From a virus, in the IMG/VR virus record IMGVR_UViG_3300015371_000006, positions 47,597-111,596 of that record: DNA of 64,000 bases; one strand, given 5' to 3'. The first letter of the stretch is position 1; every line of letters begins with the position of its first letter. Of this stretch, positions 12,472 through 46,863 are shown piece after piece. Below the pieces are notes generated by a model. It had not been told where the DNA came from, ran no database searches, and saw nothing but the letters and a program-made list of their open reading frames with translations. The translations under genes were made by a program, and so were the position numbers.

Positions 12472-15400
12472 TCACGAGTCCAGCTCACGGACCCGGTTCA
12501 CGCCGCTGACCAGGAACGCCTTGCCGGTCGCGGGCCGCCAGATCAGAACCAGGCCCCCTCCGGCGGCCTGCACGTAGATGTATTCGTTGCCGCCCTTGTC
12601 GCGGAAGCCCTGGCCCGGCATCAGATCCTTGACGTGGGGGTGCTTGTATTTCCCGCCGCTTCCCCATGCGGATTTGTAGCCCAGCAGATCGGTCATCGGG
12701 ACGCCGCTGATGCTCCCGTGCTCGGCGAGGATCTTCGCCAGCAGCGCCTTCGCGTCGCCGCCCGTGTTCGTCTCGGCCTCCACGTCGGGGCTGCTCAGCT
12801 CGGTCGCAGCCTTCGGCTGCACGTCGTCGAGCTTGGTCTGGTCGCTGACCACCTGCAGCAGCCCGCTCTGCAGATCCTTGACGATCACCTGGTTGCCCTG
12901 GCTCGGGCCGGGCGGGGTCTTGAAGGCGACCACCTGGAAGGGATGCCCGCTCGCGTTCTCGAACTCGTACTCGGGTTCCATGTCGTAGAGGTAGCCCCCG
13001 GTGAACGGCGTCGTCTCGGTTTCGGCCTCCGGGTCGGCGGCGGGCGGTTGCTCGGGGAGGTCCGCCAGCGGCGTGCCGGGGCTCACCTTGGTCATCCCGG
13101 CGGCGTCGGGGCCGGAAGGCCCCACGACCTTCTCGCCGTTCGCCAGCTCGGCCACGACGATCCACGGCTCGCCATCCGGGCCGGTGAAGGTTTCGCCGCC
13201 CTGCAGCTGGTCGATGTTCGTCGGCTCGGGGTCGGGCGGTGTCGGCGCGACGCTGATCTTCGCGGGCTTCAGCGCCCCGACCACTCCGGTGATCGTTGAC
13301 TCGGTGCCGTTCTGCAGGCTGACCGCCTTCTCGTGGTCCGACTTCATGAACTTGTAGCCGCCGTATTCGTAGGTGCTGCCGATGGGCAGGTCGTCGACGG
13401 CGAGGCCTTCGGTGTTGTCGTAGGTCGGCGGGTCGTGGTCGGGGATCGTCTGCGTCGGCGTCGGCGTCTGTGGCGGCAGCGCCATGCCGCCGGGCGGGCC
13501 GGGCACAAAGCCCTCTTCGAACTTCAGCGTCTCGCCGGGGTCGCCGCTACTCCCGAAGCTCTTCTTCAGCAGCGTCACCTCGACCTGTCCGTTGACCGGG
13601 CCGCCCTGCACCTCGTAGATCGAGCCGGAGGCCATCTTGATCTGCGTCCCTGCGGGCATCTCGCCCAGCGTGGCGGTGGTCGGCTGGAAGGCCGCTTCGG
13701 GGAACGGCGCGGCCAGGCCCTCGGGCGGCTCCACGCTGATCGGCGTGCCCCCTCCCGCCGGGGTCGCCAGCGCCTTCACGTCCTTGGCGTAAACCATCTT
13801 CAGGCCGCCCGTGGTGTAGACGCCCTTGATCCCGGTGCCCGCCACCTGGTTGTCGGTGATCTTGACCGTCTGCCCGTCCGTCAGCTCCACGACGTCGCCG
13901 TTCGCCAGCGAGTTGAAGAGTTCCTCCTGGTCGGCGGTTGCGATTCCCGCCTCGGGCGCTGGCCAGGTGATGACGGTCGGGTTGTCGACCGTCGTGTCCA
14001 TCGGCACGGTGCCCCCGGTCGCCACGTTCTCCAGGTCGACGAAGCCGTCGAAGTTGTTCGTCACCTTGTAGCGGACGTCCTGGTAGATGACGGTCTGCCC
14101 CACCGGGATGTCGGCGAGCTTCACCTGCGCGCCGGTGGCCCCCGGAGGTGCCGCAACAGCGCCCGGCTCGTCTACGTCGGTCATCTGCGGCCCCGGCTGC
14201 GTGACCACCTTCTCCAGGCTGACCGTGTACTCCTTCTGGCCCTTCTGGATCAGCAGCGCGTCCTTGCCCGACGGCGTGGTCGCTGATCCGACCACGGTGC
14301 CGGTCCAGGTCTTGCCGTCGGCGCGCTTCATCTCGACCGTCTGCCCCAGCTCGTAGCCGTGGTGCTTGATCGGCTCAGCGGGTGCCATGTCCAGGCCCTG
14401 TCCCGGCGGCGGCGGGGCGTCCATCGTCTCCTCGGGCAGCTCGCGCACGCGCAGCTTTCCGCTCACGGTGAAGTTCGTCTGCCCGTCGGAGATGATCGGC
14501 TCGTCGCCCGCGACCTGCAGCTTGAACAGCTTTCCGGTCTTGTCGCGGAACACGGTCCCGGCGGGCAGGTTCTTGATCCGCTCGTGCTTGTAGGCCCCGC
14601 CCGGCCCGTGGGAGGACTTGTAGGGCACCAGCTGGTCGCCGATGTCGAACAGCGCGTCCTCGGCCTGCTCGGACTGGTTGAGGCTCGGCGACGTGGTTGC
14701 GGGCTTGAGCGCAGGGTGGCTTTCGCCGTAGGTGACGTTGTCGCTCGGGGCGGGCATCGTCGTCTTCTGCGGGTTCAGCGTCCCGTCCTCGCGGATCAGG
14801 TTGCCGGTGATCTGCTTCTCGCCCGACTCGCCGACCGACACGCCGGTCACCTGCCACACCTTGCCGTCGTGGATGAACGTGTCGAAGTTCTCCAGCTGCT
14901 CGGCTTGGACCGTGTCGCCCGGCTTCAGCTCGGAGTGCGGGGTCAGCGACTTCGGCGGCCCGGACTTCTTGACCTGGCTCTCGTTGGTCGGGCTCTCGTG
15001 GTCGTGCCCCACGCCACCGTCTGCCGACTCCAGGGACTTGACCTTCTTCTTCAGCAGCGCCTTGCCGGTCTCCCCGGTGTCCAGGTTCGTGAAGTAGACC
15101 CAGCTCTCGTCCTTGCTGTCCACGCGGTAGGGGCGGATGCGCGAGCCCCGGCCGCCGTGGAACAGGTCGCCGTCGGCGAGGTCGCCCATCTGCGTGGACT
15201 TGCCGATCTTCCACGCCTTCGGGTTGAACAGGCCCTGCAGCGCGTCGTTGTCAGGGTCGATCTGCACGACCTTCGCGCCGGGCTTGGCCTCCTTGATCGA
15301 GACGATGCCGTTCTTCTTGACCGAGGTGACGACGTGCTTGGCCCCGTTGTAGGCCAGCGTCATCCCCTTCTCCGGCGGCTGCTTCAGCTTGAAGTAGCCC

Positions 15401-17343
15401 TCGATTTCGACCAGCTGCACGGCCTTGTAGTCGCCGTTGATGGTGCCGGTCAGGCCGCTGTTCAGGTCTTGGATCTGCGTCAGGCCCAGCGTGGGCGTGT
15501 CCTTGATCTCATACGGCGTCCCGTTGACCTTGAACTTGTCGCCGATCTGCATCTTGGCGATGGGCTTCGCGTCGTCGGTGCCGAATTGCCAGGCGGCCGG
15601 GTCGAAGCCGCTCTCCTCGACCTTGGTCGGCGGCACGTTGCCCAGCAGCTTGTAGTTCGGGTAGCCCTCTTGGAAGGCCATCTCCTCGCCGTTGTATTTC
15701 AGCCCGCCCTCGCCGTCGGGCACGATCTTGTGGATGCGCAGCCCGCTGGGGCTGGCAGGGTCGGCGTTGACGTAGTAGAGGGTGCCCTGCAGGCCCATCA
15801 GGAAGTCACCTGCGCCCGCGTGCGACTCGGCTGCCTCCAGCGCCTCGGGGTTGCCGTTGGGGTCGAGGTTGTCGAATGGCAGCCCCAGCTTCCCCAGCTC
15901 CTCGGGTGACCAGCCGGACTTGATCTCGGGCAGCTTGTCGGCGTACTCCTCCAGCGCGGTGATCGCAGCGGGCGGTGGCGGCAGGTGCGCCGAGCCCTTC
16001 ATCTTGATCTCGGCTGCGACCGGCGGCACGGGCAGCGGCTCGCCGCCTCGGACAGCCGACAGGAACATGCGGATCGTGTCGCCGCCTCGGGGCTGCTTGG
16101 TCATCTTCCCCAGCCACTGGCGGTAGCCGGACGGCACCTCGTCGTTGTGGTAGCTGATCGCCTGGTCCGGGTCCAGCACCATCTGGTAGGGGATCGCCAC
16201 CTCCTGCTCGCCGTGGCAGCTCCCCTGCGCGTTCTTCATCGGCCCCGAGACGTAGGTCGCCATGACGATGTGGCGCATGCTGACCGCCGTCGCCACGCCG
16301 GTCTGCTTCTTGCCGATGGCCTCGCTGTTGAAGCTGCAGCTCAGGCCGCTGAACACCCTCGCCTTGCCGCTGATGAACTTCTTCCACCACGAGGTCGGCT
16401 TCGCCGGGCTCAGGTAGCCGGACTTGTGGATGATCGTCAGGTCGGGGCTGCGGGTGCGGTTGTAGAGATCCCAGGCGTAGGCGTCGCGGATCAGGCCCTG
16501 CAGCTCCATCGCCTGCTCGCGCTTGGCCCGCGCGGACTCCAGCGTCTTCGGGTTCTTCTCGTGCATGTTGATGATCCCGGCGAGGCTCAGCGACATGCCC
16601 GACGAGCTGCCGTACTGCGAGCTGAAGCCGCCGCTGACGAGCTGTCCGATCTCGGCGTCGTAGCCCTGGTACGCCTTCGTGATCAGCTGGCTGGCCTTGA
16701 GCTTGCCGTACTCGCCGTAGCGCTTCTGCAGGTCGGTGTAGTGGAGCTGCTCGGCACGACCGAAGGCGGCCCACTCCTCGGCGGTCAGCGCGCTGTTGGG
16801 CGGGATCGGGATCGAGGGGTCGTGCGTCTTCGGGTCGACGTGCGGGTTGACGGCCGTGACCGTGGACTTCGGGCCGCCCGCGTGCTCGCCCTTGCCGCCG
16901 ATGACCGCCACGGGCTTAGCCCGCTTCGCGCCGGTCAGCTCCTGGGCGGGGCCGCCGGTCGTGGTCGGGTCCAGCACCACGGTCTTCGCCACCTCGCCGC
17001 CGGTCTTGTGGGCGATGATCTGCCCCTGCCCGTCGGGCCCCGCGACGATGTTGGCGATCTCGTAGGTGTCGCCCTTGAAGTCGAAGGTCTGCCCCACGCG
17101 CATGAACTTGCCGCCCAGGCCGCCCGGCGTCCCGGCGGGCCAGCGCGGGTGCAGGTGCTCCTCGACCGACGTCCACGGTCCGGCGGCCGCCTCCTCCAGG
17201 TTCTCGCCCTCGACGTCGGGCTCTCGGGGCTCCGGCCCACGCTCCCTGCGCCCACCCTGCTCGGCCGCTGCTCGGATCAGCCCCAGCGGGTCGTCGGAGT
17301 TCGCGTCGGGGGGCGTCGGCAGCGGAACGAGGACGGTCGTCAC
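12472..17343 (-). CDS. Giant (about 1623 aa) probable virion protein: HPR..GG.F motif, putative ART-like domain, about 12 divergent SH3-like beta repeats
   Basis: Long ORF; GTG start 6 nt after CACAAT; motifs listed in findings. Confidence 0.85.
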   Translation of the reverse strand: MTTVLVPLPTPPDANSDDPLGLIRAAAEQGGRRERGPEPREPDVEGENLEEAAAGPWTSVEEHLHPRWPAGTPGGLGGKFMRVGQTFDFKGDTYEIANIVAGPDGQGQIIAHKTGGEVAKTVVLDPTTTGGPAQELTGAKRAKPVAVIGGKGEHAGGPKSTVTAVNPHVDPKTHDPSIPIPPNSALTAEEWAAFGRAEQLHYTDLQKRYGEYGKLKASQLITKAYQGYDAEIGQLVSGGFSSQYGSSSGMSLSLAGIINMHEKNPKTLESARAKREQAMELQGLIRDAYAWDLYNRTRSPDLTIIHKSGYLSPAKPTSWWKKFISGKARVFSGLSCSFNSEAIGKKQTGVATAVSMRHIVMATYVSGPMKNAQGSCHGEQEVAIPYQMVLDPDQAISYHNDEVPSGYRQWLGKMTKQPRGGDTIRMFLSAVRGGEPLPVPPVAAEIKMKGSAHLPPPPAAITALEEYADKLPEIKSGWSPEELGKLGLPFDNLDPNGNPEALEAAESHAGAGDFLMGLQGTLYYVNADPASPSGLRIHKIVPDGEGGLKYNGEEMAFQEGYPNYKLLGNVPPTKVEESGFDPAAWQFGTDDAKPIAKMQIGDKFKVNGTPYEIKDTPTLGLTQIQDLNSGLTGTINGDYKAVQLVEIEGYFKLKQPPEKGMTLAYNGAKHVVTSVKKNGIVSIKEAKPGAKVVQIDPDNDALQGLFNPKAWKIGKSTQMGDLADGDLFHGGRGSRIRPYRVDSKDESWVYFTNLDTGETGKALLKKKVKSLESADGGVGHDHESPTNESQVKKSGPPKSLTPHSELKPGDTVQAEQLENFDTFIHDGKVWQVTGVSVGESGEKQITGNLIREDGTLNPQKTTMPAPSDNVTYGESHPALKPATTSPSLNQSEQAEDALFDIGDQLVPYKSSHGPGGAYKHERIKNLPAGTVFRDKTGKLFKLQVAGDEPIISDGQTNFTVSGKLRVRELPEETMDAPPPPGQGLDMAPAEPIKHHGYELGQTVEMKRADGKTWTGTVVGSATTPSGKDALLIQKGQKEYTVSLEKVVTQPGPQMTDVDEPGAVAAPPGATGAQVKLADIPVGQTVIYQDVRYKVTNNFDGFVDLENVATGGTVPMDTTVDNPTVITWPAPEAGIATADQEELFNSLANGDVVELTDGQTVKITDNQVAGTGIKGVYTTGGLKMVYAKDVKALATPAGGGTPISVEPPEGLAAPFPEAAFQPTTATLGEMPAGTQIKMASGSIYEVQGGPVNGQVEVTLLKKSFGSSGDPGETLKFEEGFVPGPPGGMALPPQTPTPTQTIPDHDPPTYDNTEGLAVDDLPIGSTYEYGGYKFMKSDHEKAVSLQNGTESTITGVVGALKPAKISVAPTPPDPEPTNIDQLQGGETFTGPDGEPWIVVAELANGEKVVGPSGPDAAGMTKVSPGTPLADLPEQPPAADPEAETETTPFTGGYLYDMEPEYEFENASGHPFQVVAFKTPPGPSQGNQVIVKDLQSGLLQVVSDQTKLDDVQPKAATELSSPDVEAETNTGGDAKALLAKILAEHGSISGVPMTDLLGYKSAWGSGGKYKHPHVKDLMPGQGFRDKGGNEYIYVQAAGGGLVLIWRPATGKAFLVSGVNRVRELDS

Positions 17344-17541
17344 CCGTCCATTGTGAACCCCGCGCAAGCGGGAGGGCGATTCAGACCACGGAGACGATGC
17401 CCTGGTGGCGGCGTTGCCACCAGCGCGCGCCCGCGCGCGTGAGCGCGAGGTGCGCGATCTCCTCGCCATAGGCGGTCGGCATCACCACCCGCCAGCGCCA
17501 GGGTCTCGGGTCGCCGCAGCAGGTGCGCTCGACCCGGCCCT

Positions 17542-17907
17542 TCACTTGACGGCTCTCCAGCCCTTCGGCTTCTCGCCGCCCTTCGGCGCGTTGGCCTGGG
17601 CGTTTCGCAGCTTCCGGTTCCAGCTGGTGTGCTTGTGGCCGCCCCACTCGGTGTAGCGGTCCGCCTCGCTGCGCTTGAAGGGCAGTCCGCTGAAGGCCCG
17701 GCGGAACTTCGCGTTGCCGTCCATCTGCTTCGGCTGGGGGATGTCGCCCAGCGCATGCGACTGCGCCTTACGCGAGCCCCGGCGCAGGTGCCCGACGTTG
17801 CGCGACTCCATCTTCTCCTCCACAGAGCGAGTGCCCTGGCGACGGTTGGCACGGCGCTGTTGGCGGTGGGTCAGGCCCCGGCCGCCCCGCTTGGCCCGGA
17901 TGCTCAC
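17542..17907 (-). CDS. Highly basic hypothetical protein
   Basis: TAGGCT -10 and CCGACCGAGGAGG upstream of GTG. Confidence 0.6.
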   Translation of the reverse strand: MSIRAKRGGRGLTHRQQRRANRRQGTRSVEEKMESRNVGHLRRGSRKAQSHALGDIPQPKQMDGNAKFRRAFSGLPFKRSEADRYTEWGGHKHTSWNRKLRNAQANAPKGGEKPKGWRAVK

Positions 17908-17945
17908 TTCGCGTACCTCCTCGGTCGGGTGTTGACCGGGGCAGC

Positions 17946-20900
17946 CTAACGGGGCTTGACGACGGCGTCGACCACGGTCGCCCCGTCGATGAGCTTGCTG
18001 CCGGTGATGCGAATCGACGTGCGCCGGGGCAGCACCACGCGGCCGGGCGTCGGATCGGTGACGGTGTCGAGCGTCGAGGGCATCAGCGCGTGCGCTCCGG
18101 TCGGGACCGTGAGCCGCAGGGTGACCACGCCGGGCGTCGGCGCGTACTGCGTCTCGGCGTTGAGGTAGCTCTTCTCGGTCATCCACTTCCCGGCCAGCTC
18201 GCCTGCGTTGTCGGCGTTGATCTTGCTGTCGGCGGGCAGCGGGACGTAGGCGTAGAAGTCCTCGTCGACTCGGGTCACCCTGTCGCCCAGCAGGGCGTCC
18301 AGCTGCGCCACGGTGCCCTGCGTCTCGGCGTCGGCGGCCGCGCGCTTGGCCCCGGAGCGCAGGTGGGCGTCCACCACGTCGTGGCCCTGGCCCAGGTAGT
18401 GCTCCATCGCTGCGTCCTCCTCGGGGTAGGTCTCCAGCGATGCGTCGCGCGCGCTGAATTCGTCGAGCACCTCCTCGCCGCTCAGCGGCTCGGGGATCTC
18501 CTCCTCGCCTCGGCTGTAGCGCCCCAACCAGGCGACTCGGGCCTTGAGGTTCTCGCGGACGCGCTCGCGCATCTCCTCATCGTCGAACGGGGCCGCGTCC
18601 ACCAGCGCGTCGATGCGCTCGGGGGTCAGACGCAGCTCGGCGTCCTTGGCGGCGGCCCGCATCCCCTCCTCGGTGATCGCCATCCGCGTCCACGCCTGCC
18701 CGCCAGGCTTGTTCATCGTCCACAGCTCGGTCGGCACCGGCCCGAACGGCTTCGGCCCGCCCATCGCCCGGTACTCCAGGGTGCCGCCCTGGTCGAGTCG
18801 GATCGGGGTGTCGCCGTTCCACAGCACGTTGTCCTGCGCCAGGCCGACCACGTCCCAGTTGCCCAGCAGCGCGTCGGCGACGAAGCCGTCGGCCAGCGTT
18901 TCATCGGCGTGTTGCCACTGGCGCTCCTCGCCGTCCACGAGCGGGTAGGTCAGCGCGCGGGTCTTGCCGAACTTCGGCACGTTCACCTCGGTGTAGCCCG
19001 CGTTCGGGACGGTGATCCCCAGCTCGCGGTAGATCGAGTTCGCCAGCAGCTCGGTTGCCACGCGGTCGCGGTTGCCCTTGTACGTCTTCACCAGCCAGCG
19101 GCGGCCCTCGGCGTCCTCGGCCATCCGCGCCCCGTTCGACCCTCCTGCGGGCTTGACGTCCTTGAGCTTCGTGGCGGTGTAGTCGGGGATGCCCTGCACC
19201 GGCTCGGGCGGGGCTTCCATCTCGGAGCGCTCGACCTCTTCGGTGCGCTCGGGCTTGCCGCCGTCCCAGCTCGCCTGCATCTTCGCCAGGAACGCCTTCA
19301 TCCCCGGCAGCTCAGGTGGGCTGGCCTGGCCTACTCCTCCGGCTTCTCCTCCGGCTTCTCCTCCGGCTCCGGGTCCGACTCGTAGCGCAGCGTCTCCCCC
19401 TCCAGGTACTCCGCTGCGTCCGGCGGGAGATCCGGGGCTGGCGGCGGCTGCTCCTTCGGGTCCATCGAGGCCCATCCTACCCTGCGCCAGGAAGCCGTCC
19501 ATCTTCTCGGCGTCGAGAATCTTCAGCTCGCCGCCCACATCCTTGTCGGCGATCAGCTTCGCGGGCTCGCCGCGCGGCACGTCGGTGTCCCACACCCGCA
19601 GCCGCAGCCAGGGGAGTTCGTCGTCGTACTCGGTGAAGCGCTGGGGCACGCTGCGGTAGGCGTTGTCGACGATGTGGTCGGGCACGGTGCGGCCGCTGCG
19701 CTCGGCGCGCTCGGCCACGCGGACCTTGCCCTTTTCGTGGGGGAGGTGGGCGACGTCGACCTCCACGTCGTAGCCGTCGGCGTGCGCCTGCTCCAGCTTC
19801 TCGCGGAAGCGCCCCGCGCCGGAGTTGCCGACGCCGTCGATCAGCACGTCGAGGCCCCGGTTGAAGGCTCGCGCGCGCAGCGTCCGGGCGATGATCGAGG
19901 ACTCCTCATGCACGCCCGCGCCGCTGTAGGGGTCGCGCGCTTCGATCATCGCCTGGTACTCGGGCAGCTTCTCCTTGATCGCGTCGGGGTTGACCTCGAC
20001 CATGCCGGTGGCCTCGGCGCTCAGCATCGAGGACTTGCCCGAGCCCGGTCCGCCTGCGGTGAACGCCGCGCGCGGCTTGCGGCCCGAGGGTGGTTCGTGG
20101 CCTTCCAAGAAGCTGTTGATGATCTCCTCGTGCAGCGCCCGGCGCTCGTCGGCGTAGACCCGGCCGGTCGGGGTCATGCGCGACCACTTCGCCTCGGTGT
20201 CGACGGCCTCGCCCAGCACCTCATTGGCCGTCGGCCCCTTCTCCACCTGCAGCCGATCCTCGGGGCGCTCGGCGGGGCTGGCCTGGCCCATCATCACCGA
20301 GCTGAGCGCATCCCAGGCGTTGGCTGCCAGCTGCTCCTCTGAGGCCGCGTCGGCGTCACGGATCGCCTCCAGGGCGCGCACCTCCTCTTCGTCTCGCAGC
20401 GTCGTGATCGCCGGTTCGACCTCCTCGCGGCTCAGCCCGTCAACCGAACCCACGTCGCGCTTGACCGCGTAGGTGCGCGTGCCGTCGCGGTCGCGGGTGA
20501 CGCTTACCTCGCTGCCGTCGCTCAGGGTGATCGTCGATGCGTCGGGCTGACCGGGGTAGAAGTCCAGCTCGTCGAGGTTCCTGCGGTCGCGGTCGCTCAG
20601 CGGCCTGCGGCCGAAGCCGGTCGGGCGGGGGCGGTCCAGTGCGCCCCGCCAGGCGGCGAGCGCAGGCATCGGCCCCGCTGCTCCGAGGGTCTGCACGCGC
20701 TGGGCATAGGGATTCCACGCCACATGGCGCGACAGGTGCAGGCCGGGGCTGGCCTGCCCGCCTTGCGCCTCCAGGGATTCGCGGTCGAGCAGCAGCTCGT
20801 TCTCGCCCGCCAGCTTGCCCAGCCACAGCGCCTTGGTCCCGGCGGGCACCGTGACCTCCTGAACGTCGCCGAATCGCTCGGCATCAGCCTTTCGCGTGCT

Positions 20901-23900
20901 GGTGCTCACGAACGGCCCGCGCAGCTTGCCGTCGTCGGCCCCGCCTCGGTAGACCGTGACCGCCTCGGGGAGCGCCCTCATCGCCCTGCGCAGCATCTTG
21001 ACCTGCGGCCCCAGCTTGTACTCGCGGTCGAGCGAGGGGTCGTAGAGGATCTCGTCGGGATCGTCCGACTCTTGGAACGGCGTGCTGTCAACGATGTACA
21101 GCTCAGCCGCGTTCTGTTGGCGCGGTCCCAGCTCGGGCGCATTCGCGTCGAGCATCTCCTCAGCCGCCTTACCCTTCAGTCCGGGGCTGGCCTGGCCAGT
21201 CGCCTTACTGATTGCGGCCTTCACCAGCGAGTCGTCGAGCGCCCGGCGCTCCTCCGGCGTGCGGTCGGGGTCGTCGTCGGCGTGCTGATCCATCGCGTCG
21301 GCGATCAGCGCCTCCAGGTCGGCGGTGTCCTCGCCGGGCTCGACCCAGCCGTTGAGCATCGACTTCGTCAGCTCGTCCTGCACGGCCTGGCGCTGCTCAG
21401 GGGTCAGCTGGTCGAGGCCGGGGCTGGCCTGGCCTGCCATCGCGCGCAGGCGCGGGTCGTCTGACTGGGACAGGTACTCCTGCTTGCGGGCCTGCAGCGA
21501 GTCGGCGATCTCGCTGCCCACCGGCTCGCCGTCGCGGGTGTAGCGGGCCTGGTGGCCGTAGTACGCCTGCGACCAGTTGTAGCCGTCGGTAAGCCGGTAG
21601 CCGTGGTCGATGACCTTGCCCTTGTTCTGCGCCTCCAGCTCGCGCATCAGCTGGGTGGCGATGCCCCGGCGCTGGAACTCGGGGATGACCTCGATCTTGT
21701 CGATGCCGATGTCGGCGTTGGCCTCGCGCGCTTTCTTGCCGATGGCGGGCCGGTAGCGGCTGTAGGTCAGCTTGCCCACCTCCCTGCCGTCTACCTCGGC
21801 CACCAGGCCGTCGAAGTATTCGGTGTCGCCTCGCTTGCGCGGCTTGATCTCGGCGGGGCTCAGCTGGCCCGACTTGACCGCGTCGTCTACCTGGGGGTTC
21901 CAGGCGTCCAGGGTTGCGGGCGGACTCGCCTGCCCCAGCGCGAGCTTCGTGTCCGGCATCAGGCCCTTGCCTGCGGGCTGGGCGACACCGGAGCGCACGG
22001 CGATGCCGTAGCTCTCGGCGTTGCTCATCCGGTTCGTGGTCGCGTAGCGCTTCCGTGAGCCGTCGGGGCGTTCGATCAGCACGCTGTCGCCGCGCTTGCC
22101 TCGGGTGATCGTCGAGCCATCGGCGGCCTGCAGGCTGTCGCCTCGCTGCAGCGCTCGGACCTTGCGGATCAGCGCCCGGCGCGGGTCGGAGTAGTTGTGC
22201 GGGTCGAAGCTGCCGGGCTCGATGTCGAGCGCCTCGGCGTTCGGCTCGGCGATCCCCATCTCCTTCATCGTCCGCTTGACGAAGACGCGGTCCTTCTCCT
22301 TCTCGGCTTCGGGCAGGTCGGCGTAGGGCTTCAGCAGCTCCGGCTGGTCGGCCTTCGCCCAGCTCTGGTTGCGGTCGATCCAGGCGTCGTGCACCTCGGA
22401 GGCCAGCCGCTCCATGTCGAGCGCACCCTCCTCATCGCGCATCCGGGTGATCGCGTCGTAGGCCGACGCCGCGCCGTCGCGGTTCTCGGCTTGGAACTTC
22501 TCGGGCAGCTCGTCGTAGGTCATGTCGGCGATGTCGATGGTCCCGCCCCCATAGGGCTTGGGCCGGGGCTCGTAGTTGCGGTCCTTGCGCCACTGTTCGT
22601 GGGCCTGTGCCGCGACCCTCTCTACGACCTTGTCTCGCTGCATGGCAGCGCCTGTGAGCGGTTGTTCGGGCGCGCCCTCTGCACCCTGCCCCTCCGGGGC
22701 GTCGCCGCCTCTGGCGCGCTTACGGCTCTCCGCTCCAGGGCGGGCTCGGGACACGTCGAGGACGCTCGACTCGCGCAGCAGCACCATCTCGCCGTCCTCG
22801 GTGAGCGCCTCGGCCTTCCAGCCCAGCGCGTCGTCGTCCTCGACCTTGCGCAGCTCGGCCACGGTGATGTCGCCGTTGTTCTGCTTGATCCGCACCACAT
22901 CGCCCTCCGCGACCGGGCCGGTGATGTTGTTGCCCTTCAGGTTGCGCCGGGGCGGATCGGCCAGGAACTCCACGTCGTCGGGGTCGGGGTAGCGGGTGAC
23001 GGTGTCCACGATCTGGCCGTTGTGGTCGCGCAGCTTGACCTCGACCTCGGCGTACCAGCGCCCGTCCTCGCCCACCATCGCGTCGGTGACCACGCCCTCC
23101 CAGGGCTCCTTGCGCCCCGTCACGCGCACGCGCGCGCCCGCGCGGATGCGCATGCGGTGGTCGGTGTAGTTGGGCTGGCGCAGCACCTCCGCTCCGGCGG
23201 CCCCCGGCCCGGCGAAGTGCTCGACCGTCCTCGCCATCAGGTCGCGCGCTCGCGCCTCGCCCTTCTCGGGGGTGACGCCCTGCGCGCCTGCCAGCAGCCC
23301 GCCGAGGATCTCGAAACGCTTCTCGGGGTCGGCGCTGAAGGCCAGGTTGTGCAGCAGCTCGCGGCGGTTCTCCAGCGGGACGTGGGCTTCGTCGAGCAGG
23401 AGCCCGAGCGCTGCGCGCTGGGGCAGGTAGGTGCCCTGGGCTCGGATGTCGTCGGGCTTGCGGCCCAGCCAGCGCAGGACGTCGTGCTGTCCGTTGCGCT
23501 TCAGCAACTCGACCGCCCACTCGTGAGCCATCTCCTCGGTCAGCGCCTCGTCGAGGCTGAAGTGCTCCGGCTGGGCGAAGGTCTCGGGGTTGATCGGGTT
23601 GACGCCGTGGGAGGCCTCGTGCATCGCCGTGCGGTAGGCGTTGTAGACGCCCGCTGCGGTGTCGTCGTCGAGCCGCCGCTTCTCCACGCGGGCGGCGTGG
23701 GCGGCCTGCAGGTGCACCTGGGCGGCCCGGCCGACTTGCACCTCGCCGTCCCAGCTGCGAAAGCCGCCCGTGTCCTCGTCGGCTTCGTTGATGCGGATCG
23801 ACTTCAGCACCACCTGGCGGCCGTGCGTGTCGCCGATTTGCTGTGCAAGCCCGGCCACTCCGGCGGCAAGACCGGAGAAGTCCTCTGGTGCGCCAGCCTT

Positions 23901-25109
23901 CTGGGCCGCCATATTGCCTGCAAAGGGCACAGGAACTGGAGAAGACGTCGGGCCCCCGGCTCCATCCGGCACATCCGGCACATCCGGCGTCCCAGCAGGC
24001 ATCCCGCCGGGTGCCGCCTGGCCCCCGACCTGCGTGGTGACCCTTGCTGGGATCGGGTCCGACCCGCGCTGCGCGAGCTTCGGCGCGTCCGTGCCGTGCA
24101 GGAACCGGAGCACGTCGTTGAGGCTGATCCTCGGCGCAAAACCCCCGCGTCTTGGGCGGAAACGGCCGCCCCACACCGTGCCCTTGGCGAACCGCTCGTC
24201 CCAGGCGACCTCCTCCATGTCGAGCACGAGGTCTGCGGGTGGGACATCGGTGCCCTCGGGCTGGGACATACCGCCGGACATATCCCCAGTCAGAGACACG
24301 AGAAAGTCACCATTTGCAGGGGTTTCGCCGTTCGAGCTGAGGGACATCTCCAGGGACATCTCGGTGACACGTTCGGCCAGTAGGGCCTCTTGCAGCAGGC
24401 CGTATCGCTCAGCGATCTGCTGGGCGCGCCGGTCGGCCGCCTCGGTGTCGGGAGCCTCGGCTCCCATCAGCCCCATGTCGTATGCCTCGTCGTGCGTGAG
24501 CAGCTCGCAGCGGCAGCCCGTGTGCGTCGGCGGGTTGATCCGGTCGAGCACGCTCCAGGGCCACCAGCCGACCGTCGCCATCGCCAGGCAGTCCGGGGTG
24601 TGCTCCTTGACCGCTTCGCTGAGGTGCCAGAACGCGCCCTCGGGGCTCAGCCTGCGGACCATGCCCCTGCGCGCGGTCGCCTGCACGCGAGCGGCCGCCG
24701 CCTCGTGGTGTGCCTCGGTGAACCGCCGCTCGCGCTCCAGCACCCGCTTGACCGCCGCCTCGGGTTCGTCGCGCTGCAGGGCCGCCGGGATGTCGCGGCG
24801 CATCCGCTCCTCCATGCGCCGGTAGAACTCGACGTCGCGCTCCTGCTCGACCCGCGCGGCCTCGGCCAGCTCGGCATCGCTCACGTCGGCGCGTGCGAAC
24901 TCCGGTCGGATCGCCTTGACGATCCAGTCCGCGCCCTTGCTGCGCCGCCTCAGCGCCGCGACGGCCGCCCCGATGGCGGCCCCGGCCTGTCCCGAGGCCA
25001 CCTCGCCCCCAGCAGCGTCGTCGTCGCCGGAGGCTGCGATGACGCCCCCCGCTGCGGCCGCCGCCAGGATCGCCTCGGTGTTGTCGTCCTGCTTCGCGCG
25101 CGTCGGCAT
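17946..25109 (-). CDS. MuF (phage head morphogenesis) fused polyvalent effector polyprotein: MuF, zincin, SH3-like, RyR, GNAT, ART, Zeta kinase, HipA/PI3K-like kinase, degenerate ART
   Basis: HTPDC..PPTHTGCRC (MuF); HEASH..E; HEQW/HDAW..PYADLPEAEKEKDR (RyR); EVIPEFQRRGIATQLM; VYRG..STST..ENE; GGPGSGKS..NPDAIK..HEES; GGSNG..LVK..DALLGNWD..DN..RLDQGG. Confidence 0.9.
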   Translation of the reverse strand: MPTRAKQDDNTEAILAAAAAGGVIAASGDDDAAGGEVASGQAGAAIGAAVAALRRRSKGADWIVKAIRPEFARADVSDAELAEAARVEQERDVEFYRRMEERMRRDIPAALQRDEPEAAVKRVLERERRFTEAHHEAAAARVQATARRGMVRRLSPEGAFWHLSEAVKEHTPDCLAMATVGWWPWSVLDRINPPTHTGCRCELLTHDEAYDMGLMGAEAPDTEAADRRAQQIAERYGLLQEALLAERVTEMSLEMSLSSNGETPANGDFLVSLTGDMSGGMSQPEGTDVPPADLVLDMEEVAWDERFAKGTVWGGRFRPRRGGFAPRISLNDVLRFLHGTDAPKLAQRGSDPIPARVTTQVGGQAAPGGMPAGTPDVPDVPDGAGGPTSSPVPVPFAGNMAAQKAGAPEDFSGLAAGVAGLAQQIGDTHGRQVVLKSIRINEADEDTGGFRSWDGEVQVGRAAQVHLQAAHAARVEKRRLDDDTAAGVYNAYRTAMHEASHGVNPINPETFAQPEHFSLDEALTEEMAHEWAVELLKRNGQHDVLRWLGRKPDDIRAQGTYLPQRAALGLLLDEAHVPLENRRELLHNLAFSADPEKRFEILGGLLAGAQGVTPEKGEARARDLMARTVEHFAGPGAAGAEVLRQPNYTDHRMRIRAGARVRVTGRKEPWEGVVTDAMVGEDGRWYAEVEVKLRDHNGQIVDTVTRYPDPDDVEFLADPPRRNLKGNNITGPVAEGDVVRIKQNNGDITVAELRKVEDDDALGWKAEALTEDGEMVLLRESSVLDVSRARPGAESRKRARGGDAPEGQGAEGAPEQPLTGAAMQRDKVVERVAAQAHEQWRKDRNYEPRPKPYGGGTIDIADMTYDELPEKFQAENRDGAASAYDAITRMRDEEGALDMERLASEVHDAWIDRNQSWAKADQPELLKPYADLPEAEKEKDRVFVKRTMKEMGIAEPNAEALDIEPGSFDPHNYSDPRRALIRKVRALQRGDSLQAADGSTITRGKRGDSVLIERPDGSRKRYATTNRMSNAESYGIAVRSGVAQPAGKGLMPDTKLALGQASPPATLDAWNPQVDDAVKSGQLSPAEIKPRKRGDTEYFDGLVAEVDGREVGKLTYSRYRPAIGKKAREANADIGIDKIEVIPEFQRRGIATQLMRELEAQNKGKVIDHGYRLTDGYNWSQAYYGHQARYTRDGEPVGSEIADSLQARKQEYLSQSDDPRLRAMAGQASPGLDQLTPEQRQAVQDELTKSMLNGWVEPGEDTADLEALIADAMDQHADDDPDRTPEERRALDDSLVKAAISKATGQASPGLKGKAAEEMLDANAPELGPRQQNAAELYIVDSTPFQESDDPDEILYDPSLDREYKLGPQVKMLRRAMRALPEAVTVYRGGADDGKLRGPFVSTSTRKADAERFGDVQEVTVPAGTKALWLGKLAGENELLLDRESLEAQGGQASPGLHLSRHVAWNPYAQRVQTLGAAGPMPALAAWRGALDRPRPTGFGRRPLSDRDRRNLDELDFYPGQPDASTITLSDGSEVSVTRDRDGTRTYAVKRDVGSVDGLSREEVEPAITTLRDEEEVRALEAIRDADAASEEQLAANAWDALSSVMMGQASPAERPEDRLQVEKGPTANEVLGEAVDTEAKWSRMTPTGRVYADERRALHEEIINSFLEGHEPPSGRKPRAAFTAGGPGSGKSSMLSAEATGMVEVNPDAIKEKLPEYQAMIEARDPYSGAGVHEESSIIARTLRARAFNRGLDVLIDGVGNSGAGRFREKLEQAHADGYDVEVDVAHLPHEKGKVRVAERAERSGRTVPDHIVDNAYRSVPQRFTEYDDELPWLRLRVWDTDVPRGEPAKLIADKDVGGELKILDAEKMDGFLAQGRMGLDGPEGAAAASPGSPAGRSGVPGGGDAALRVGPGAGGEAGGEAGGVGQASPPELPGMKAFLAKMQASWDGGKPERTEEVERSEMEAPPEPVQGIPDYTATKLKDVKPAGGSNGARMAEDAEGRRWLVKTYKGNRDRVATELLANSIYRELGITVPNAGYTEVNVPKFGKTRALTYPLVDGEERQWQHADETLADGFVADALLGNWDVVGLAQDNVLWNGDTPIRLDQGGTLEYRAMGGPKPFGPVPTELWTMNKPGGQAWTRMAITEEGMRAAAKDAELRLTPERIDALVDAAPFDDEEMRERVRENLKARVAWLGRYSRGEEEIPEPLSGEEVLDEFSARDASLETYPEEDAAMEHYLGQGHDVVDAHLRSGAKRAAADAETQGTVAQLDALLGDRVTRVDEDFYAYVPLPADSKINADNAGELAGKWMTEKSYLNAETQYAPTPGVVTLRLTVPTGAHALMPSTLDTVTDPTPGRVVLPRRTSIRITGSKLIDGATVVDAVVKPR
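19331..19465 (-). CDS. Nested out-of-frame 44-aa acidic protein, candidate antitoxin/immunity protein for the Zeta domain
   Basis: TAGGAT 8 nt before ATG; MDPKEQPPPAPDLPPDAAEYLEGETLRYESDPEPEEKPEEKPEE*; high-GC3 codons while the host frame has atypical codons. Confidence 0.55.
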   Translation of the reverse strand: MDPKEQPPPAPDLPPDAAEYLEGETLRYESDPEPEEKPEEKPEE

Positions 25110-25217
25110 GCCCAACGAGTCTAAGCCCGAAAGCGGCGAGCGGCCCAGGTCGCCCTGGACCGCCCTCCCAGCGCCGCTCGATTGCCTTTCTTCGCCGCCG
25201 GGTGCCGCTCTCCTGCC

Positions 25218-30126: not shown

Positions 30127-32133
30127 TCATTGGCCCAGCTCCCTGATCGGCTTCGTGATGTCGTCGAAGTCGTCGGCGGCCCGTTTCGCCTGCTCGCGCA
30201 CACGGCGCTGGGCCTCCTCGGTGCGCAGGCGGTCGACCATCTGCTCCTCCAGGTCCGACAGGGCCTGCTCGCGCGTGACGTAGCGGCTCTCGGTTGGCCC
30301 GTAGGGGTTGGCCTCCGGCGTCGAGGCCGCCATCGGCGCGCCGTAGGGGTTGGCCTCGCCCTGCGGGGCCCCGCCGTTGCCGTTGATGGTGATCCCTGGC
30401 GGGAGCTGCTCCTGGGGCTGTTGCTGTTGCTGCAGCGCTTCCATCGCCGGGTCGGTGTAGCCGGGCGGGAACACCTTCTCGGTGACCTCGGCCGGGTCGC
30501 TCATCTCCAGGCCCTCGCCGATGGCGATGCTGAACAGCGTCCGGGTCAGCTCGATGTTGGTCCCGTTCGGGTCGAAGGTGCGCGCCACGGTGGCGACGCT
30601 GTTCACCAGCTCGGTCATCATCCGCCGCAGCGGGCTCGGCAGGGAGAAGTCGTAGCTGAGATCGCGCTTGCGCTCGTCCTCGGGCACCTCCTCGGGGATC
30701 TCGCCGTCCTCGTCGGTCGGGTCGGGCGCGCCCAGCTCGGCCTGGGTGTCGGCCTTCGGCGGCGTCGGCACGGCGGGGGCGTCCTCGGTGCCCTCCTGCT
30801 CGCGGTCCTCCTGGCGCTCTGCCCACTCCTCGTAGCTCAGCTCCTCGGTCAGCCGCCCGGCCTCCAGGGCCTCGTGGATCACCTGGTCGCAGAACCAGCG
30901 GAACATCTGCTCGAAGACCTCTTGGCGCGATTCGACCGCCTTCAGCACGGGCAGCTCCATCGAGGTGGCCGTCGCCAGGTTCGCCGAGCCGATGTCGCCG
31001 AGGTAGTGCTGGGGGAAGTGCGTCGCGGCGCTGATCTGCGAGCGGATCATCTGCCCGTCCACGTTCGCGCCGGTCGCCCCGCTGTCCAGCTTGAAGCTCT
31101 CGTGCTCGACCTGCTCGTTCTCGGTGATGATCGAGCCGCCGCTCGGCCCAGCGACCACGGAGGTGTCGGAGTCCACGGTCCGCCCCAGCTCGCCTCGGGT
31201 GCTCAGCGCCTGGTTGGCCATCTTGCGGATCTGGTTCGGCGTGCCCTTGACCTTGCGCTTCATGATGAACGCGGCGGCTGCCTTCGCGGCATCCACGCGG
31301 GCCTCCATCAGCGAGTTGAAGGCGTTGGCCCAGCGCAGCACCCGGTGCATGGTCGGGTGCCCGAAGGCCATCTCGGAGGTCTTGTTGACGGCGACGTGGT
31401 AGACGCGGCCCTTGCCGGTCTTGTTCGCCGGGGGCTTGAGCCCGCCCTTCTCGTTGTTCCAGTGCTGGTAGTAGAGGATGCGCTGGCCGCGCTCGGGCGC
31501 GTCGTAGAGCAGCTGGGGGCCGTCCTTTTGGAAGTCCCACTTCATCTGCTTGCGGCGGCTGACGTAGTAGAGGACGCGCAGGCGGTTGTCGGGATCGCGG
31601 ACGACGTTCTCGACGCTGTCGTGCTCCAGCATCCCGAGCTTGACCTTGCCGTCGTCGCCCGTGAACTTCAGCAGGAAGATGTTGCTCTGCAGGGTGATGT
31701 CGGTCCCGAGCGCGAGCTGCGCCGGGTAGCTGGTCAGCGCCAGCTGGTTGTCCTCGTCGTCCCAGGCTTCGTCGAGGATCTCCTGCACCTTCTCGTCGCG
31801 GGCCTTCGGACGCGGGACGCCCCGGCCCAGGCAGAAGTCGTTCATCAGGTCGGTGGCCGCGCCGAGCTGCGCGTCCTGTTGCCAGGCTACCCGCGCTTGC
31901 TGCACCAGCGCCCGGCGCTTGACCGCCTGCAGATCCTGCTCGGAGCCGCCCTCGTAGTCCAGCAGGGTCCAGCCGATCAGGTCGAGCTGTTGGCGCAGCA
32001 CTCGCCGGTCCTCGACCATCGCCTCCATGACGTCGAGTTCGTCGGCGTCGACGGTCGTCTCGCCCCGGTTGCTCAGGCGCGTGCGCGCCCAGCGGTCGAG
32101 GAAGCCCTCGCGCTTCTCGTCGTCCTCAGCCAC
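30127..32133 (-). CDS. Phage portal protein
   Basis: Position downstream of TerL; size; DFCLGRG, GNIF-like SNIF, YHVAVN..FGHP, G..NLATA..ME.P motifs. Confidence 0.85.
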   Translation of the reverse strand: MAEDDEKREGFLDRWARTRLSNRGETTVDADELDVMEAMVEDRRVLRQQLDLIGWTLLDYEGGSEQDLQAVKRRALVQQARVAWQQDAQLGAATDLMNDFCLGRGVPRPKARDEKVQEILDEAWDDEDNQLALTSYPAQLALGTDITLQSNIFLLKFTGDDGKVKLGMLEHDSVENVVRDPDNRLRVLYYVSRRKQMKWDFQKDGPQLLYDAPERGQRILYYQHWNNEKGGLKPPANKTGKGRVYHVAVNKTSEMAFGHPTMHRVLRWANAFNSLMEARVDAAKAAAAFIMKRKVKGTPNQIRKMANQALSTRGELGRTVDSDTSVVAGPSGGSIITENEQVEHESFKLDSGATGANVDGQMIRSQISAATHFPQHYLGDIGSANLATATSMELPVLKAVESRQEVFEQMFRWFCDQVIHEALEAGRLTEELSYEEWAERQEDREQEGTEDAPAVPTPPKADTQAELGAPDPTDEDGEIPEEVPEDERKRDLSYDFSLPSPLRRMMTELVNSVATVARTFDPNGTNIELTRTLFSIAIGEGLEMSDPAEVTEKVFPPGYTDPAMEALQQQQQPQEQLPPGITINGNGGAPQGEANPYGAPMAASTPEANPYGPTESRYVTREQALSDLEEQMVDRLRTEEAQRRVREQAKRAADDFDDITKPIRELGQ

Positions 32134-32518
32134 TCTTCGCCTTCGCCTTCGACTTGGACTTGGACTTCGGCTCGGGCTCCTCGTCGCCGTCACCGTTCGT
32201 GCCCTGCTCGCCCTTGCGCGCTGCATCGCGCAGGATCGCGGCCGCCTCGCGGTAGGCCATCTGCGCCTTGTTGGAGTTCGGCATCCCCGACGTGCGGGCC
32301 AGCGCTTGGTCGAGCATGTCGGCCGAGGTCTCCAGCAGCACTGAGCGGCCGTTCGTGGCGGCGTGCTCGTCCTCTGCCTCGGCTCTGCCCTCTTCGCGGC
32401 CCCGCTCGTAGTTGCGCTTCAGTAGGTCGCGGACCTCCTTGGCGGTGTCGCGCGTGTCGCCCCCCTTGATCGCAATCCGGCGGGCATCAGCCGCCAGCCG
32501 TCGTCGGTTGTCAGCCAT
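32126..32518 (-). CDS. Hypothetical protein
   Basis: Overlap coupling with portal. Confidence 0.65.
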   Translation of the reverse strand: MADNRRRLAADARRIAIKGGDTRDTAKEVRDLLKRNYERGREEGRAEAEDEHAATNGRSVLLETSADMLDQALARTSGMPNSNKAQMAYREAAAILRDAARKGEQGTNGDGDEEPEPKSKSKSKAKAKSG

Positions 32519-34597: not shown

Positions 34598-36322
34598 TCA
34601 CTGGTCGAATCCGGGCTCGTAGACGTCCACCTTGCTCTCCAGCTGCACGGTGCCCCGGTCCAGCTCCGTGCGTTCGAAGTCGTACATCTCTTCGAAGCTC
34701 ATCGTCTCGCCCTGCTCCAGCTCGTTGACGCCGGTCTGCCAGAGGAAGACCTCTTTGGCGAGCATGTCGTAGACCTCGGCCATCGCGTGGTCGAACGGCT
34801 GCCCGCCGTTGACGTACTCGACCTTCATCTGGCCCTTCTCGTTCTCCTCCTGCACGCGCGTGAGCGCCTGTAGCTGCTCGACGTAGTCGGTCGGCCGGGT
34901 CTCCGGGCTCGGCAGCAGGTTGCGTTGCTGGCGGATCGCGTCGAAGGTCGCGTCGATGGCGGGGGTCCGCTGCACGCTCACGGCCCGCATCTCCGGCTCG
35001 ACCTTCATCACCTCGTTGTGCGTCCCGAAGCGGGCGAGGTAGATGCGGCCGGGGAAGCGCTCGGCCAGCTGGCGGGCCAGGCGGCCTTCGGGCAGGTGGT
35101 CGATGCAGAGGATGTTCACGGAGTAGCGGTCCATCAGCTCGCCGACCTGGCCGAAGCTCTCGACCTCGCCGACGAACAGCGGCGTCTTGTACGGGTCGCC
35201 GCCGCCCTTGCGCTTGGGCTCGTGGTGCAGGCTGATCCGCACGTTCAGGTTGCGCGTCGTGGCGACGTCGACGCCTCCGGTGACCAGCGAGCCGCCGCTG
35301 TAGGGGTCGGCGATAGCGGGGAGGTCGCGGGTGGCCGCTTCGATTGCAGCATCGGTCAGGCGGCCCTCTGCCGGTGCCCACGCCTCGGCGAGATCCTTGT
35401 TGAAGTGGACCTGGCGCTCGTAGGCGTTCGTCTTGTAGTGCGCCGCGACGATGGTCGGGATGTCGGCGTGCGCCACGATCAGGCGGGGCATGTGGTACCC
35501 GCGCACCAGCCGGTCGGGGTGCTTTGCCACCCACTCGCCGCCCAGCACATCGAGGGGCTTCCGGCACTTCGTGCAGACCAGGTGGGCGTCGGGCCACTCG
35601 TCGTTGACCGGCGTGCCCTCCTCGATGTTCGCGTAGCTCGGCGTTTGCTGCTCGCCGCAGCGCTCGCACTTGACCATCCAGAAGCGCTGGTCGGTGCGGT
35701 TGAAGGCGCGGTCGATCCCGTAGCCGGGGATGGAGGGGACGCCGACCCGTCGGGTCTTGCCGTCCAGCGACCCGGAGATCCGGCGCTCGGCGTCAGGGAT
35801 GTTCTCCTGGCGCAGCGTGTCGTACTCATCCAGCGCGAGGATGTCGGCCGGGACCGCATCGAGGTCGTGCTTTGACTCGCTCCCGCGCGCGTAGAGGTGG
35901 CCGCGCCCGATCTTCTTCAGGCCCTTGTTGTTCACGTCGCCGACGGGGATGCGCTTGCTCAGGTACGGGCTCGCCAGGATCGCCGCCTTCACCCGCGCGT
36001 CGGAGAAGTCGTACATCTGCTGGCGCTTCGGGAACACGTAGAGGCTGTCGGTCGCGCGCACGTCGCAGTGCCACATGACCCAGCGCAGCAGGTAGGTGCT
36101 GACGCCGACCTGGGTGGCCTTCTTGACCACGGCCTCCTTCGCCATCGCTCCCGGCGTGTCGTACAGCTCGCGTTGGAACGGGTAGCGGTTGAAGTCCAGC
36201 TTGCCGGTCTTCGGCTCGGGCACCAGCAGGGACCATTCGAAGAAGCTGATGATCATCCCCGCGCGGTGCTCGCGACGTCGGTTGACGCTCTCCATGAACG
36301 CGCTGCCGGGGGTTGCCGTCAC
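34598..36322 (-). CDS. terL: Terminase large subunit (lambda gpA-like family)
   Basis: YPFQREL; KKATQVGVS (Walker A); LALDEYD (Walker B); CERC..CTKC; GGVDV and CID nuclease motifs; leaderless TAGGAT. Confidence 0.92.
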   Translation of the reverse strand: MTATPGSAFMESVNRRREHRAGMIISFFEWSLLVPEPKTGKLDFNRYPFQRELYDTPGAMAKEAVVKKATQVGVSTYLLRWVMWHCDVRATDSLYVFPKRQQMYDFSDARVKAAILASPYLSKRIPVGDVNNKGLKKIGRGHLYARGSESKHDLDAVPADILALDEYDTLRQENIPDAERRISGSLDGKTRRVGVPSIPGYGIDRAFNRTDQRFWMVKCERCGEQQTPSYANIEEGTPVNDEWPDAHLVCTKCRKPLDVLGGEWVAKHPDRLVRGYHMPRLIVAHADIPTIVAAHYKTNAYERQVHFNKDLAEAWAPAEGRLTDAAIEAATRDLPAIADPYSGGSLVTGGVDVATTRNLNVRISLHHEPKRKGGGDPYKTPLFVGEVESFGQVGELMDRYSVNILCIDHLPEGRLARQLAERFPGRIYLARFGTHNEVMKVEPEMRAVSVQRTPAIDATFDAIRQQRNLLPSPETRPTDYVEQLQALTRVQEENEKGQMKVEYVNGGQPFDHAMAEVYDMLAKEVFLWQTGVNELEQGETMSFEEMYDFERTELDRGTVQLESKVDVYEPGFDQ

Positions 36323-46377: not shown

Positions 46378-46863
46378 TCATCCGCGTGTCCTCCATTCGG
46401 TCATGCTCGGGATCGGGGCGGGGCTCGCCCGCCACACTAGGTGGTGGTCGTCGTCCTGGGTGAAGCTGCACGCGGTGGCGCGGACGACGCCCAGCGGCTG
46501 TCCGTCGTCGGGCCTCTCGGCCCACACGACGCCGCTGTCACGTCCGTTGCGCCGGTCCTGGTAGTCGCGCCCGTTGAGCCAGGGGCAGTTCTCCCAGGCG
46601 AAGTCGAAGCAGTCGGGGTGCATCGGCGGCTCGCCGAAGCTGTTGCGCTCGACCGACCCGGCGAAGCCGATCAGGATCATCTGCCCGCGCATCTGCTCGC
46701 CGCAGAGCTGGCAGAGGTTCCGCATCGCGCAGCGCTGGCGGTTGCCCTCGTCGTGGACCCTGAAGTCGGGCCGTCCATCGATGATCGCGGTGACGTAGGG
46801 GATCGGCAGGCTGCCGTGCTGCGGGCGCTTCGCCAGGGCAGGGATCACGATTGGTCGGGTCAC
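46378..46863 (-). CDS. Conserved actinophage-type Zn-binding protein
   Basis: LPIPYV..PDF..LCQLCG..EPPMH..C..CPWL. Confidence 0.7.
   Translation of the reverse strand: MTRPIVIPALAKRPQHGSLPIPYVTAIIDGRPDFRVHDEGNRQRCAMRNLCQLCGEQMRGQMILIGFAGSVERNSFGEPPMHPDCFDFAWENCPWLNGRDYQDRRNGRDSGVVWAERPDDGQPLGVVRATACSFTQDDDHHLVWRASPAPIPSMTEWRTRG

Follow-up and report, generated by a model that had tools for sequence, protein, structure and literature searches.

Probable capture of a Zeta toxin together with its inhibitor gene, overprinted in a viral polyprotein gene

We analyzed a stretch of 64,000 nucleotides (positions 47,597 to 111,596; hereafter the window, to which all coordinates refer) of IMG/VR virus record IMGVR_UViG_3300015371_000006, a viral record of 111.6 kb with a guanine-plus-cytosine (GC) content of 70%. 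On the minus strand, an open reading frame (ORF) of 2389 amino acids (17946..25115; polyprotein P0001) carries a Zeta toxin domain, and directly behind that domain a second ORF of 44 codons plus TAG, starting with ATG (19331..19465, minus strand; peptide P0002, denoted the nested ORF), lies wholly inside the long one, on the same strand and in the +1 frame relative to it. The nested ORF encodes an acidic, proline-rich peptide that is a candidate inhibitor of the Zeta domain. On balance, we favour the reading that it is a live overprinted inhibitor gene, descended from a small gene downstream of stand-alone Zeta genes; a toxin and its inhibitor were probably captured as a pair, with the inhibitor overprinted in the polyprotein gene.

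The Pfam Zeta_toxin match of P0001 covers amino acids 1674-1833 (19617..20096, minus strand; E 1.2e-22) and places the domain in the PF06414 family with 80.8 bits, compared with a cut-off of 22.3. Neither its P-loop, GGPGSGKS, nor the Asp of VNPD varies in the alignments; their aligned counterparts in the S. pyogenes Zeta (1GVN) are the P-loop and the VIDND-segment Asp, respectively. An exhaustive profile search yielded 3980 Zeta relatives, 152 of which could be aligned. Most of these (88 of the 152) stop no more than 15 residues from the position that corresponds to FLAQG in P0001 (amino acids 1875-1879; 19479..19493, minus strand), and Zeta is therefore normally a C-terminal toxin domain. 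The nested ATG at 19465 is located 14 nt past this natural end; because Zeta usually ends its protein here, this is the position at which an immunity gene would be expected. Small acidic ORFs stand immediately downstream of many phage Zeta genes, and, among MuF toxin genes, 89.4% have been reported to have a small downstream ORF (Jamet et al. 2017, PMC5576092).

The layout around the nested ORF is as a first-pass annotation of this DNA had described it: an ATG ORF in a shifted frame of the same strand, preceded by TAGGAT at a distance of 8 nt (19474..19479, minus strand), made up mostly of codons ending in G or C (41 of 44) and closed by a stop abutting the next GQASP. A TGA near 19527 is the last stop before this open frame, in which no start is possible ahead of the ATG at 19465. 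At the other end, the TAG overlaps by one base the GGC codon that begins the GQASP delimiter opening the next module (19317..19331, minus strand). Read in the polyprotein frame, the same DNA (19332..19478, minus strand) yields a low-complexity linker of 49 amino acids rich in Gly, Ala and Pro (amino acids 1880-1928), with many GGA, GTA and GCA codons, again as first described, and with the codon usage of an off-frame reading.

To score coding potential, we derived a codon log-odds model from 57 long ORFs of the genome, leaving out the nested segment. The nested frame scored +1.19 bits per codon, which corresponds to the 58th percentile of true-frame segments, with a GC content at third codon positions (GC3) of 93%; just 0.2% of +1 off-frame segments reach this score. 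The polyprotein frame over the nested ORF scored −0.75 bits per codon, below the 1st percentile of true-frame segments. Its GC3 is ∼0.40-0.45, and in the 135-nt segment from 19466 a value of 0.40, the lowest among 10,741 segments from the 30 long ORFs of the window, is combined with a first-position GC of 0.93. Among 88 same-strand out-of-frame nested ORFs of at least 40 amino acids, three score above 1, the nested ORF being one of them; from their positions, the other two appear to lie where the enclosing stop-to-stop ORF reaches upstream of its likely start, which leaves the nested ORF as the single one with a coding score inside a gene. Codon usage thus marks the nested frame as the coding one. 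These scores also bear on the possibility that the nested ORF arose by chance in GC-rich, low-complexity DNA, with the purine-rich repeat CCGGAGGAGAAG mimicking good codons. Such an origin would fit the 66 ORFs of at least 40 amino acids that overlap 14000-25000 and the short tandem repeat that makes up the 3′ third of the nested ORF, but it accounts neither for a codon score typical of true genes nor for a start placed exactly at the usual end of Zeta, and we consider it improbable.

Two further ORFs came to light in the codon analysis. A 49-codon GTG ORF (46380-46527, minus strand) lies out of frame in a long ORF with a host GC3 of 0.53 and a first-position GC of 0.96; its own nested score is mildly positive (0.43), and it could be the start region of a gene or another overlap. 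A 71-codon GTG ORF (32129-32341, minus strand) probably represents a genuine small gene, its codon score (1.18) being at the level of genes; it overlaps the stretch by which the 30127-32226 ORF is extended upstream.

A change of reading frame behind a conserved domain might also come from an assembly or sequencing indel, in which case the true gene would carry the tail in frame and the polyprotein would be artefactual. The contig is a metagenome-derived viral one, and the depth of the Logan contigs at this place is low (2.4-4x). Logan contigs from two samples nevertheless match 19000-19405, 19410-19599 and 19207-19389 with zero differences. They are independent and cover both frame boundaries, and one of them, from a sample of another year (X3, 2012, compared with X1, 2016), spans the TAG/GQASP junction. 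Because the boundaries match without differences, an indel is unlikely from the assembly itself; moreover, P0004, a related protein, likewise joins Zeta and a kinase-like module in one chain. Taking both points together, we regard this explanation as extremely improbable. The Logan contigs comprised identical pieces and short low-complexity cross-matches only, with no variant relatives. The acidic tail of the nested peptide is encoded by the repeat CCGGAGGAGAAG (19334-19400), which gives many short cross-matches to unrelated metagenome contigs; read depth over this repeat is uninformative.

Sequences resembling the nested peptide accompany Zeta domains elsewhere, both fused and separate. Two Zeta proteins, P0090 and P0132, carry an in-frame tail after Zeta with the motif D-S-[AS]-[DE]-Y-L-E-x5-Y, which in the nested peptide reads D-A-A-E-Y-L-E-x5-Y (Asp16 to Tyr28; 19382..19420, minus strand). 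When 2156 six-frame pieces of the genome were searched with a hidden Markov model built from these two tails, the nested ORF came out on top (E 0.0069; next piece, 0.52). Scans of metagenome, genome and viral contigs with the Zeta alignment gave 121 loci, three of which have the motif in a separate ORF. In L011, from a Baekduia metagenome-assembled genome, the Zeta gene ends at 2391 and an acidic ORF of 47 amino acids (2378-2521) follows in the +1 frame, its ATG overlapping the Zeta stop; beyond it lie an inverted repeat and a convergent ORF. In L003, ATG 1701 overlaps the Zeta TAA, again in the +1 frame, with GAGGTG 7 nt upstream; here the contig ends before the ORF does, and the fit to the motif is looser. 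In L044, a NUDIX-Zeta gene is followed by an ATGA-overlapping gene whose product has D-S-A-D-Y-L-E-x5-Y at its N terminus. This product (L044:2259-3728), a protein of at least 490 amino acids with no Pfam match, contains the motif within its first 25 residues, and the motif may thus be a portable Zeta-docking peptide. The ATG of the nested ORF, like those of L003 and L011, is embedded in a host-frame GAT-G. Across 853,232 six-frame residues from all loci and the genome, the pattern D.[SAG][DEV][YV]L[EDQ].{5}Y occurs three times, namely in L011, L044 and the nested ORF; the motif is thus confined to places beside Zeta domains, which speaks against chance.

Searches in other directions returned little. 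The P0002, L011 and L003 peptides had no Pfam or PHROGs match, a Protein Atlas search with P0002 gave no usable match, and in protein searches neither P0002, compared with longer proteins, nor the P0090 tail matched anything but itself. A DNA search of a phage collection gave no match to 18900-20400, and viral contigs scanned with either the Zeta module or P0004 included no close relatives. No nested ORF was found after Zeta at the other viral loci where the protein continues past the domain, and the long protein encoded behind Zeta in L044 did not match the downstream module of P0001 or that of L012; L012, L048 and L067 are therefore no more than loose look-alikes. We hold with moderate confidence that the nested peptide is homologous to the motif-bearing sequences, a view that draws on motif and gene context and not on score alone. 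A second small acidic ORF family, unrelated to the first, occurs downstream of phage Zeta genes (L004:3675-3878, L055:2204-2380, L045:2196-2417, L007:795- and L064:2331-); its members share a pattern like IKAE..G..DIP, and it may be another candidate immunity family.

The in-frame fusions admit a different account of the nested frame, namely programmed +1 frameshifting after Zeta that would end at the TAG and give a shorter polyprotein consisting of Zeta and a motif tail, as in P0090 and P0132. Besides the fusions themselves, the +1 frame shared by the nested ORF, L003 and L011 and a rare AGG codon just upstream would suit it. There is, however, no recognisable slippery site between 19527 and 19465, and no codon pair permits re-pairing; L044 is in the other frame. 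In addition, an ATG stands at the Zeta stop or close to it in all four out-of-frame cases; frameshifting would have no need of one, and its presence argues for separate initiation. We judge frameshifting to be quite improbable. A compensated frameshift, or a fusion relic of an in-frame C-terminal tail, had also been considered and was demoted once the separate ATG ORFs with the motif were found in L003, L011 and L044.

The first-pass annotation had proposed modelling the Zeta domain and the peptide as a complex. We predicted this complex from the 260-residue Zeta module with an 87-row alignment and the peptide with a 4-row alignment. The interaction prediction score from aligned errors (ipSAE) was 0.85, 0.84 and 0.85, compared with 0.02 for the best of three controls. 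The mark applied to ipSAE is one that 58 of 80 solved complexes attained, as did 2 of 110 mismatched pairs; these counts are rough because our own alignments were used. The runs shared at least 89% of contacts, and the predicted local distance difference test (pLDDT) of the partner was at least 67. In the predicted interface, peptide residues 8-34, which include the conserved motif, lie over the Zeta active site and contact Zeta residues 66, 70-71, 89-92, 112-129, 140-147 and 190-193; the contacts take in the P-loop as well as the aligned counterpart of the VIDND-segment Asp of the 1GVN Zeta. The model thus supports a peptide that would inhibit Zeta by occluding its active site, and its performance against the controls is a further point against chance. 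The epsilon-Zeta complex has been solved, yet the peptide is unrelated to epsilon, so that recall by the predictor seems unlikely. AlphaFold2 models of the fusions P0132 and P0090 gave a pLDDT below 50 for the motif-bearing tail and speak neither for nor against docking in cis.

A promoter of its own had been ascribed to the nested gene on the grounds that the TAGGAT hexamer also precedes TerL. The hexamer is indeed present before TerL (34598-36322, minus strand), 6 nt from the GTG, where it abuts a GGAGG Shine-Dalgarno sequence. We reject TAGGAT as a promoter: it is not enriched in the window (2 occurrences compared with 4.4 expected), there is no sigma-70-like site within 19000-20000, and at TerL it flanks a ribosome-binding site. 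The more natural reading of these letters would be a weak Shine-Dalgarno candidate, the AGGA core (19475-19478, minus strand) standing 9 nt before the nested ATG.

Several observations weigh against an expressed inhibitor gene. The AGGA core, a weak ribosome-binding site, is the sole visible start signal and, unlike L003, L011 and L044, the nested ORF has no upstream stop codon from which translation could be coupled by termination and reinitiation. None of the sequencing runs listed with this DNA is recorded as RNA. An open frame of 44 codons is in itself uninformative in DNA of 70% GC, and an intact ORF with its codon signature kept would also suit a recent capture that is now unused. On the side of homology, the regular expression was written after inspection of the sequences, with its second position relaxed to admit the nested peptide; pairwise BLASTP gives weak matches (P0090, E 0.013; L011 peptide, E 0.20); and broader profiles rank the nested ORF first or second but with E-values of 0.67-0.82, values near 1 that would also suit a chance ORF. 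Finally, the other toxin modules of P0001 have no nested ORF, and an inhibitor may therefore not be needed.

Some of these points suit an unexpressed relic, that is, a small gene that was either captured with the Zeta cassette or shifted by an indel, so recently that ORF, motif and codon signature persist, and that is untranslated, the polyprotein frame serving as a disordered spacer. The weak ribosome-binding site, the absence of a promoter-like site and of a nearby stop codon for coupling, the ease with which alternative frames stay open at this GC content and the lack of nested partners in the other toxin modules would all be expected of it, and the P0090/P0132 motif might simply be part of the tail of Zeta proteins. 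Yet the nested ORF shows no visible decay: its high GC3 is retained, its motif is intact and the polyprotein frame is not shifting toward normal codon usage. L003 and L011 have their ATG in the corresponding position. In P0004, known as a protein only and sharing 53% identity over the Zeta domain, Zeta, Gly-rich linker and kinase-like module follow one another in the same order, which offers a hint, though only a hint, that the arrangement is old. We therefore consider a relic rather unlikely, if the most serious of the alternatives.

The reading that we favour, a live overprinted inhibitor gene, can be put as a sequence of events. A Zeta-toxin cassette would have entered the polyprotein gene together with its downstream small gene, and the Zeta stop codon would have been lost or bypassed. 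Because T is rare at third codon positions, the −1 frame of a high-GC3 gene is almost free of stops, and the polyprotein frame could therefore run through the small gene. Such read-through would yield the 49-residue Gly/Ala/Pro spacer with its GGA and GCA codons and would rejoin the GQASP module exactly at the TAG of the small gene. The polyprotein frame itself must be translated, since 461 amino acids of downstream modules depend on it. Ribosomes entering at the weak AGGA site would start internally at ATG 19465 and so produce the peptide from the late transcript that also encodes the polyprotein. The peptide would bind over the nucleotide and substrate cleft of Zeta, covering the P-loop, the catalytic Asp and the HEESS and DGVG segments, and would hold kinase activity in check within the producing cell up to packaging or delivery of the module. 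The first-pass annotation had envisaged a toxin-immunity pair captured as one module, with the small gene nested and independently expressed while the polyprotein reads through it. Capture and nesting are supported by the position of the Zeta end, the separate ORFs of L011, L044 and L003, the codon usage and the complex model, whereas the promoter had to be given up.

More tentatively, and with somewhat less than even confidence, we propose that the nested ORF is translated and is the founding member of a new family of short, linear, acidic Zeta-kinase inhibitors, unrelated to epsilon/PezA, that occur as separate proteins, as C-terminal fusions or overprinted in a multi-toxin virion polyprotein. 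If this is true, the same 135 bases encode the spacer of a toxin carrier and the inhibitor of that toxin. The overlap would then have arisen by capture and not by de novo birth, a rare route in which a polyprotein engulfs an already existing small gene as it grows, made easy by high-GC3 genes whose −1 frame is almost stop-free. A very short family of Zeta inhibitors might have gone unrecognised. Nested immunity genes of this kind in phage toxin polyproteins will always be missed by gene callers, and surveys of toxins without immunity partners would be biased accordingly.

P0001 as a whole is a series of modules with GQASP delimiters between them. Pfam matches identify a GNAT module (∼amino acids 1102-1166) and an ADP-ribosyltransferase (ART) module (amino acids 1402-1447) ahead of Zeta, and a kinase-like module follows. 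Six GQASP delimiters separate the modules, mostly encoded by GGCCAGGCCAGCCCC; the one that opens the Zeta module comprises amino acids 1610-1614 (20274..20288, minus strand). The sequence downstream of the nested ORF (17949..19316, minus strand) can be reached only via the polyprotein frame and includes a kinase-like part (GGSNGA) common to many related polyproteins. In its general form, G-[QM]-x-S-P, the delimiter stands at module boundaries seven times in P0001 (19317-21935, minus strand); another giant ORF of this genome (1-1882, minus strand, continuing upstream in the genome) has it twelve times, and GMASP/GQASP occurs up to 17 times in related polyproteins (P0153-P0158). Because the x residue varies, the signal acts at the level of the peptide, and the delimiter is probably a protease processing site; a literature search on the GQASP/GMASP delimiter returned nothing relevant. 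Among relatives with the GGSNGA kinase-like module (P0153-P0200), the preceding module differs from one to the next, being NUDIX, 2H phosphoesterase, ART or GNAT. Judging from these sequences, cargo modules are evidently shuffled between phages.

P0001 had first been described as a MuF gene, which is a tentative label. PF04233 (Phage_Mu_F) was not detected in P0001 or anywhere in the genome, and the N-terminal 300 amino acids (24216-25115, minus strand) have no Pfam or PHROGs match. An alignment with the MuF-bearing relative P0197 is collinear but insignificant (E 0.92) and takes in an H..CRC motif. The MuF identity of P0001 is thus drawn from a PPTHTGCRC-like motif and this weak alignment.

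Among known overlapping genes, the closest in layout is lambda Rz1, a short gene embedded in the +1 frame inside Rz on the same strand. Like Rz1, the nested ORF lies wholly in the +1 frame of a longer phage gene of the same strand. The two cases differ in that translation of the nested frame is deduced from codon usage here, and in that the embedded gene appears to be the older of the two, the host frame over it being a passive low-complexity linker.

With regard to function, epsilon inhibits Zeta by covering the nucleotide-binding cleft. The nested peptide resembles epsilon in epsilon/Zeta and PezA in PezA/PezT as the putative partner of a Zeta-family P-loop kinase, predicted here to lie over the nucleotide-binding cleft. 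It differs from them in having no sequence or Pfam relation to either and in being a mostly linear chain of 44 residues rich in Pro and acidic residues. Gene order differs as well: epsilon and PezA antitoxin genes are upstream of the toxin gene, whereas the nested ORF is downstream of Zeta, as are the separate ORFs of L003, L011 and L044. Judged by its sequence, the nested peptide is not an antitoxin of the epsilon/PezA type. In EzeT, a Zeta kinase is silenced by a fused antitoxin (PMC4826407). The fused and separate forms of the nested motif parallel EzeT and the two-gene Zeta systems, respectively, except that the antitoxin domain of EzeT is N-terminal and the motif is C-terminal in its fusions.

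A further functional likeness is with the immunity genes of polymorphic toxins, among them the MuF toxins that temperate phages carry (Jamet et al. 2017, PMC5576092). As in these systems, a small ORF without a known domain starts right at the end of a toxin domain, and the relatives of its product travel with the same toxin family elsewhere, either separately (L003, L011 and L044) or fused (P0090 and P0132). Unlike an immunity gene in a separate downstream cistron, the candidate lies inside the toxin ORF, in another frame and with more toxin modules after it. Taken together with the predicted complex, these likenesses suggest that the nested peptide may act like an immunity protein of polymorphic toxins or an antitoxin of Zeta.

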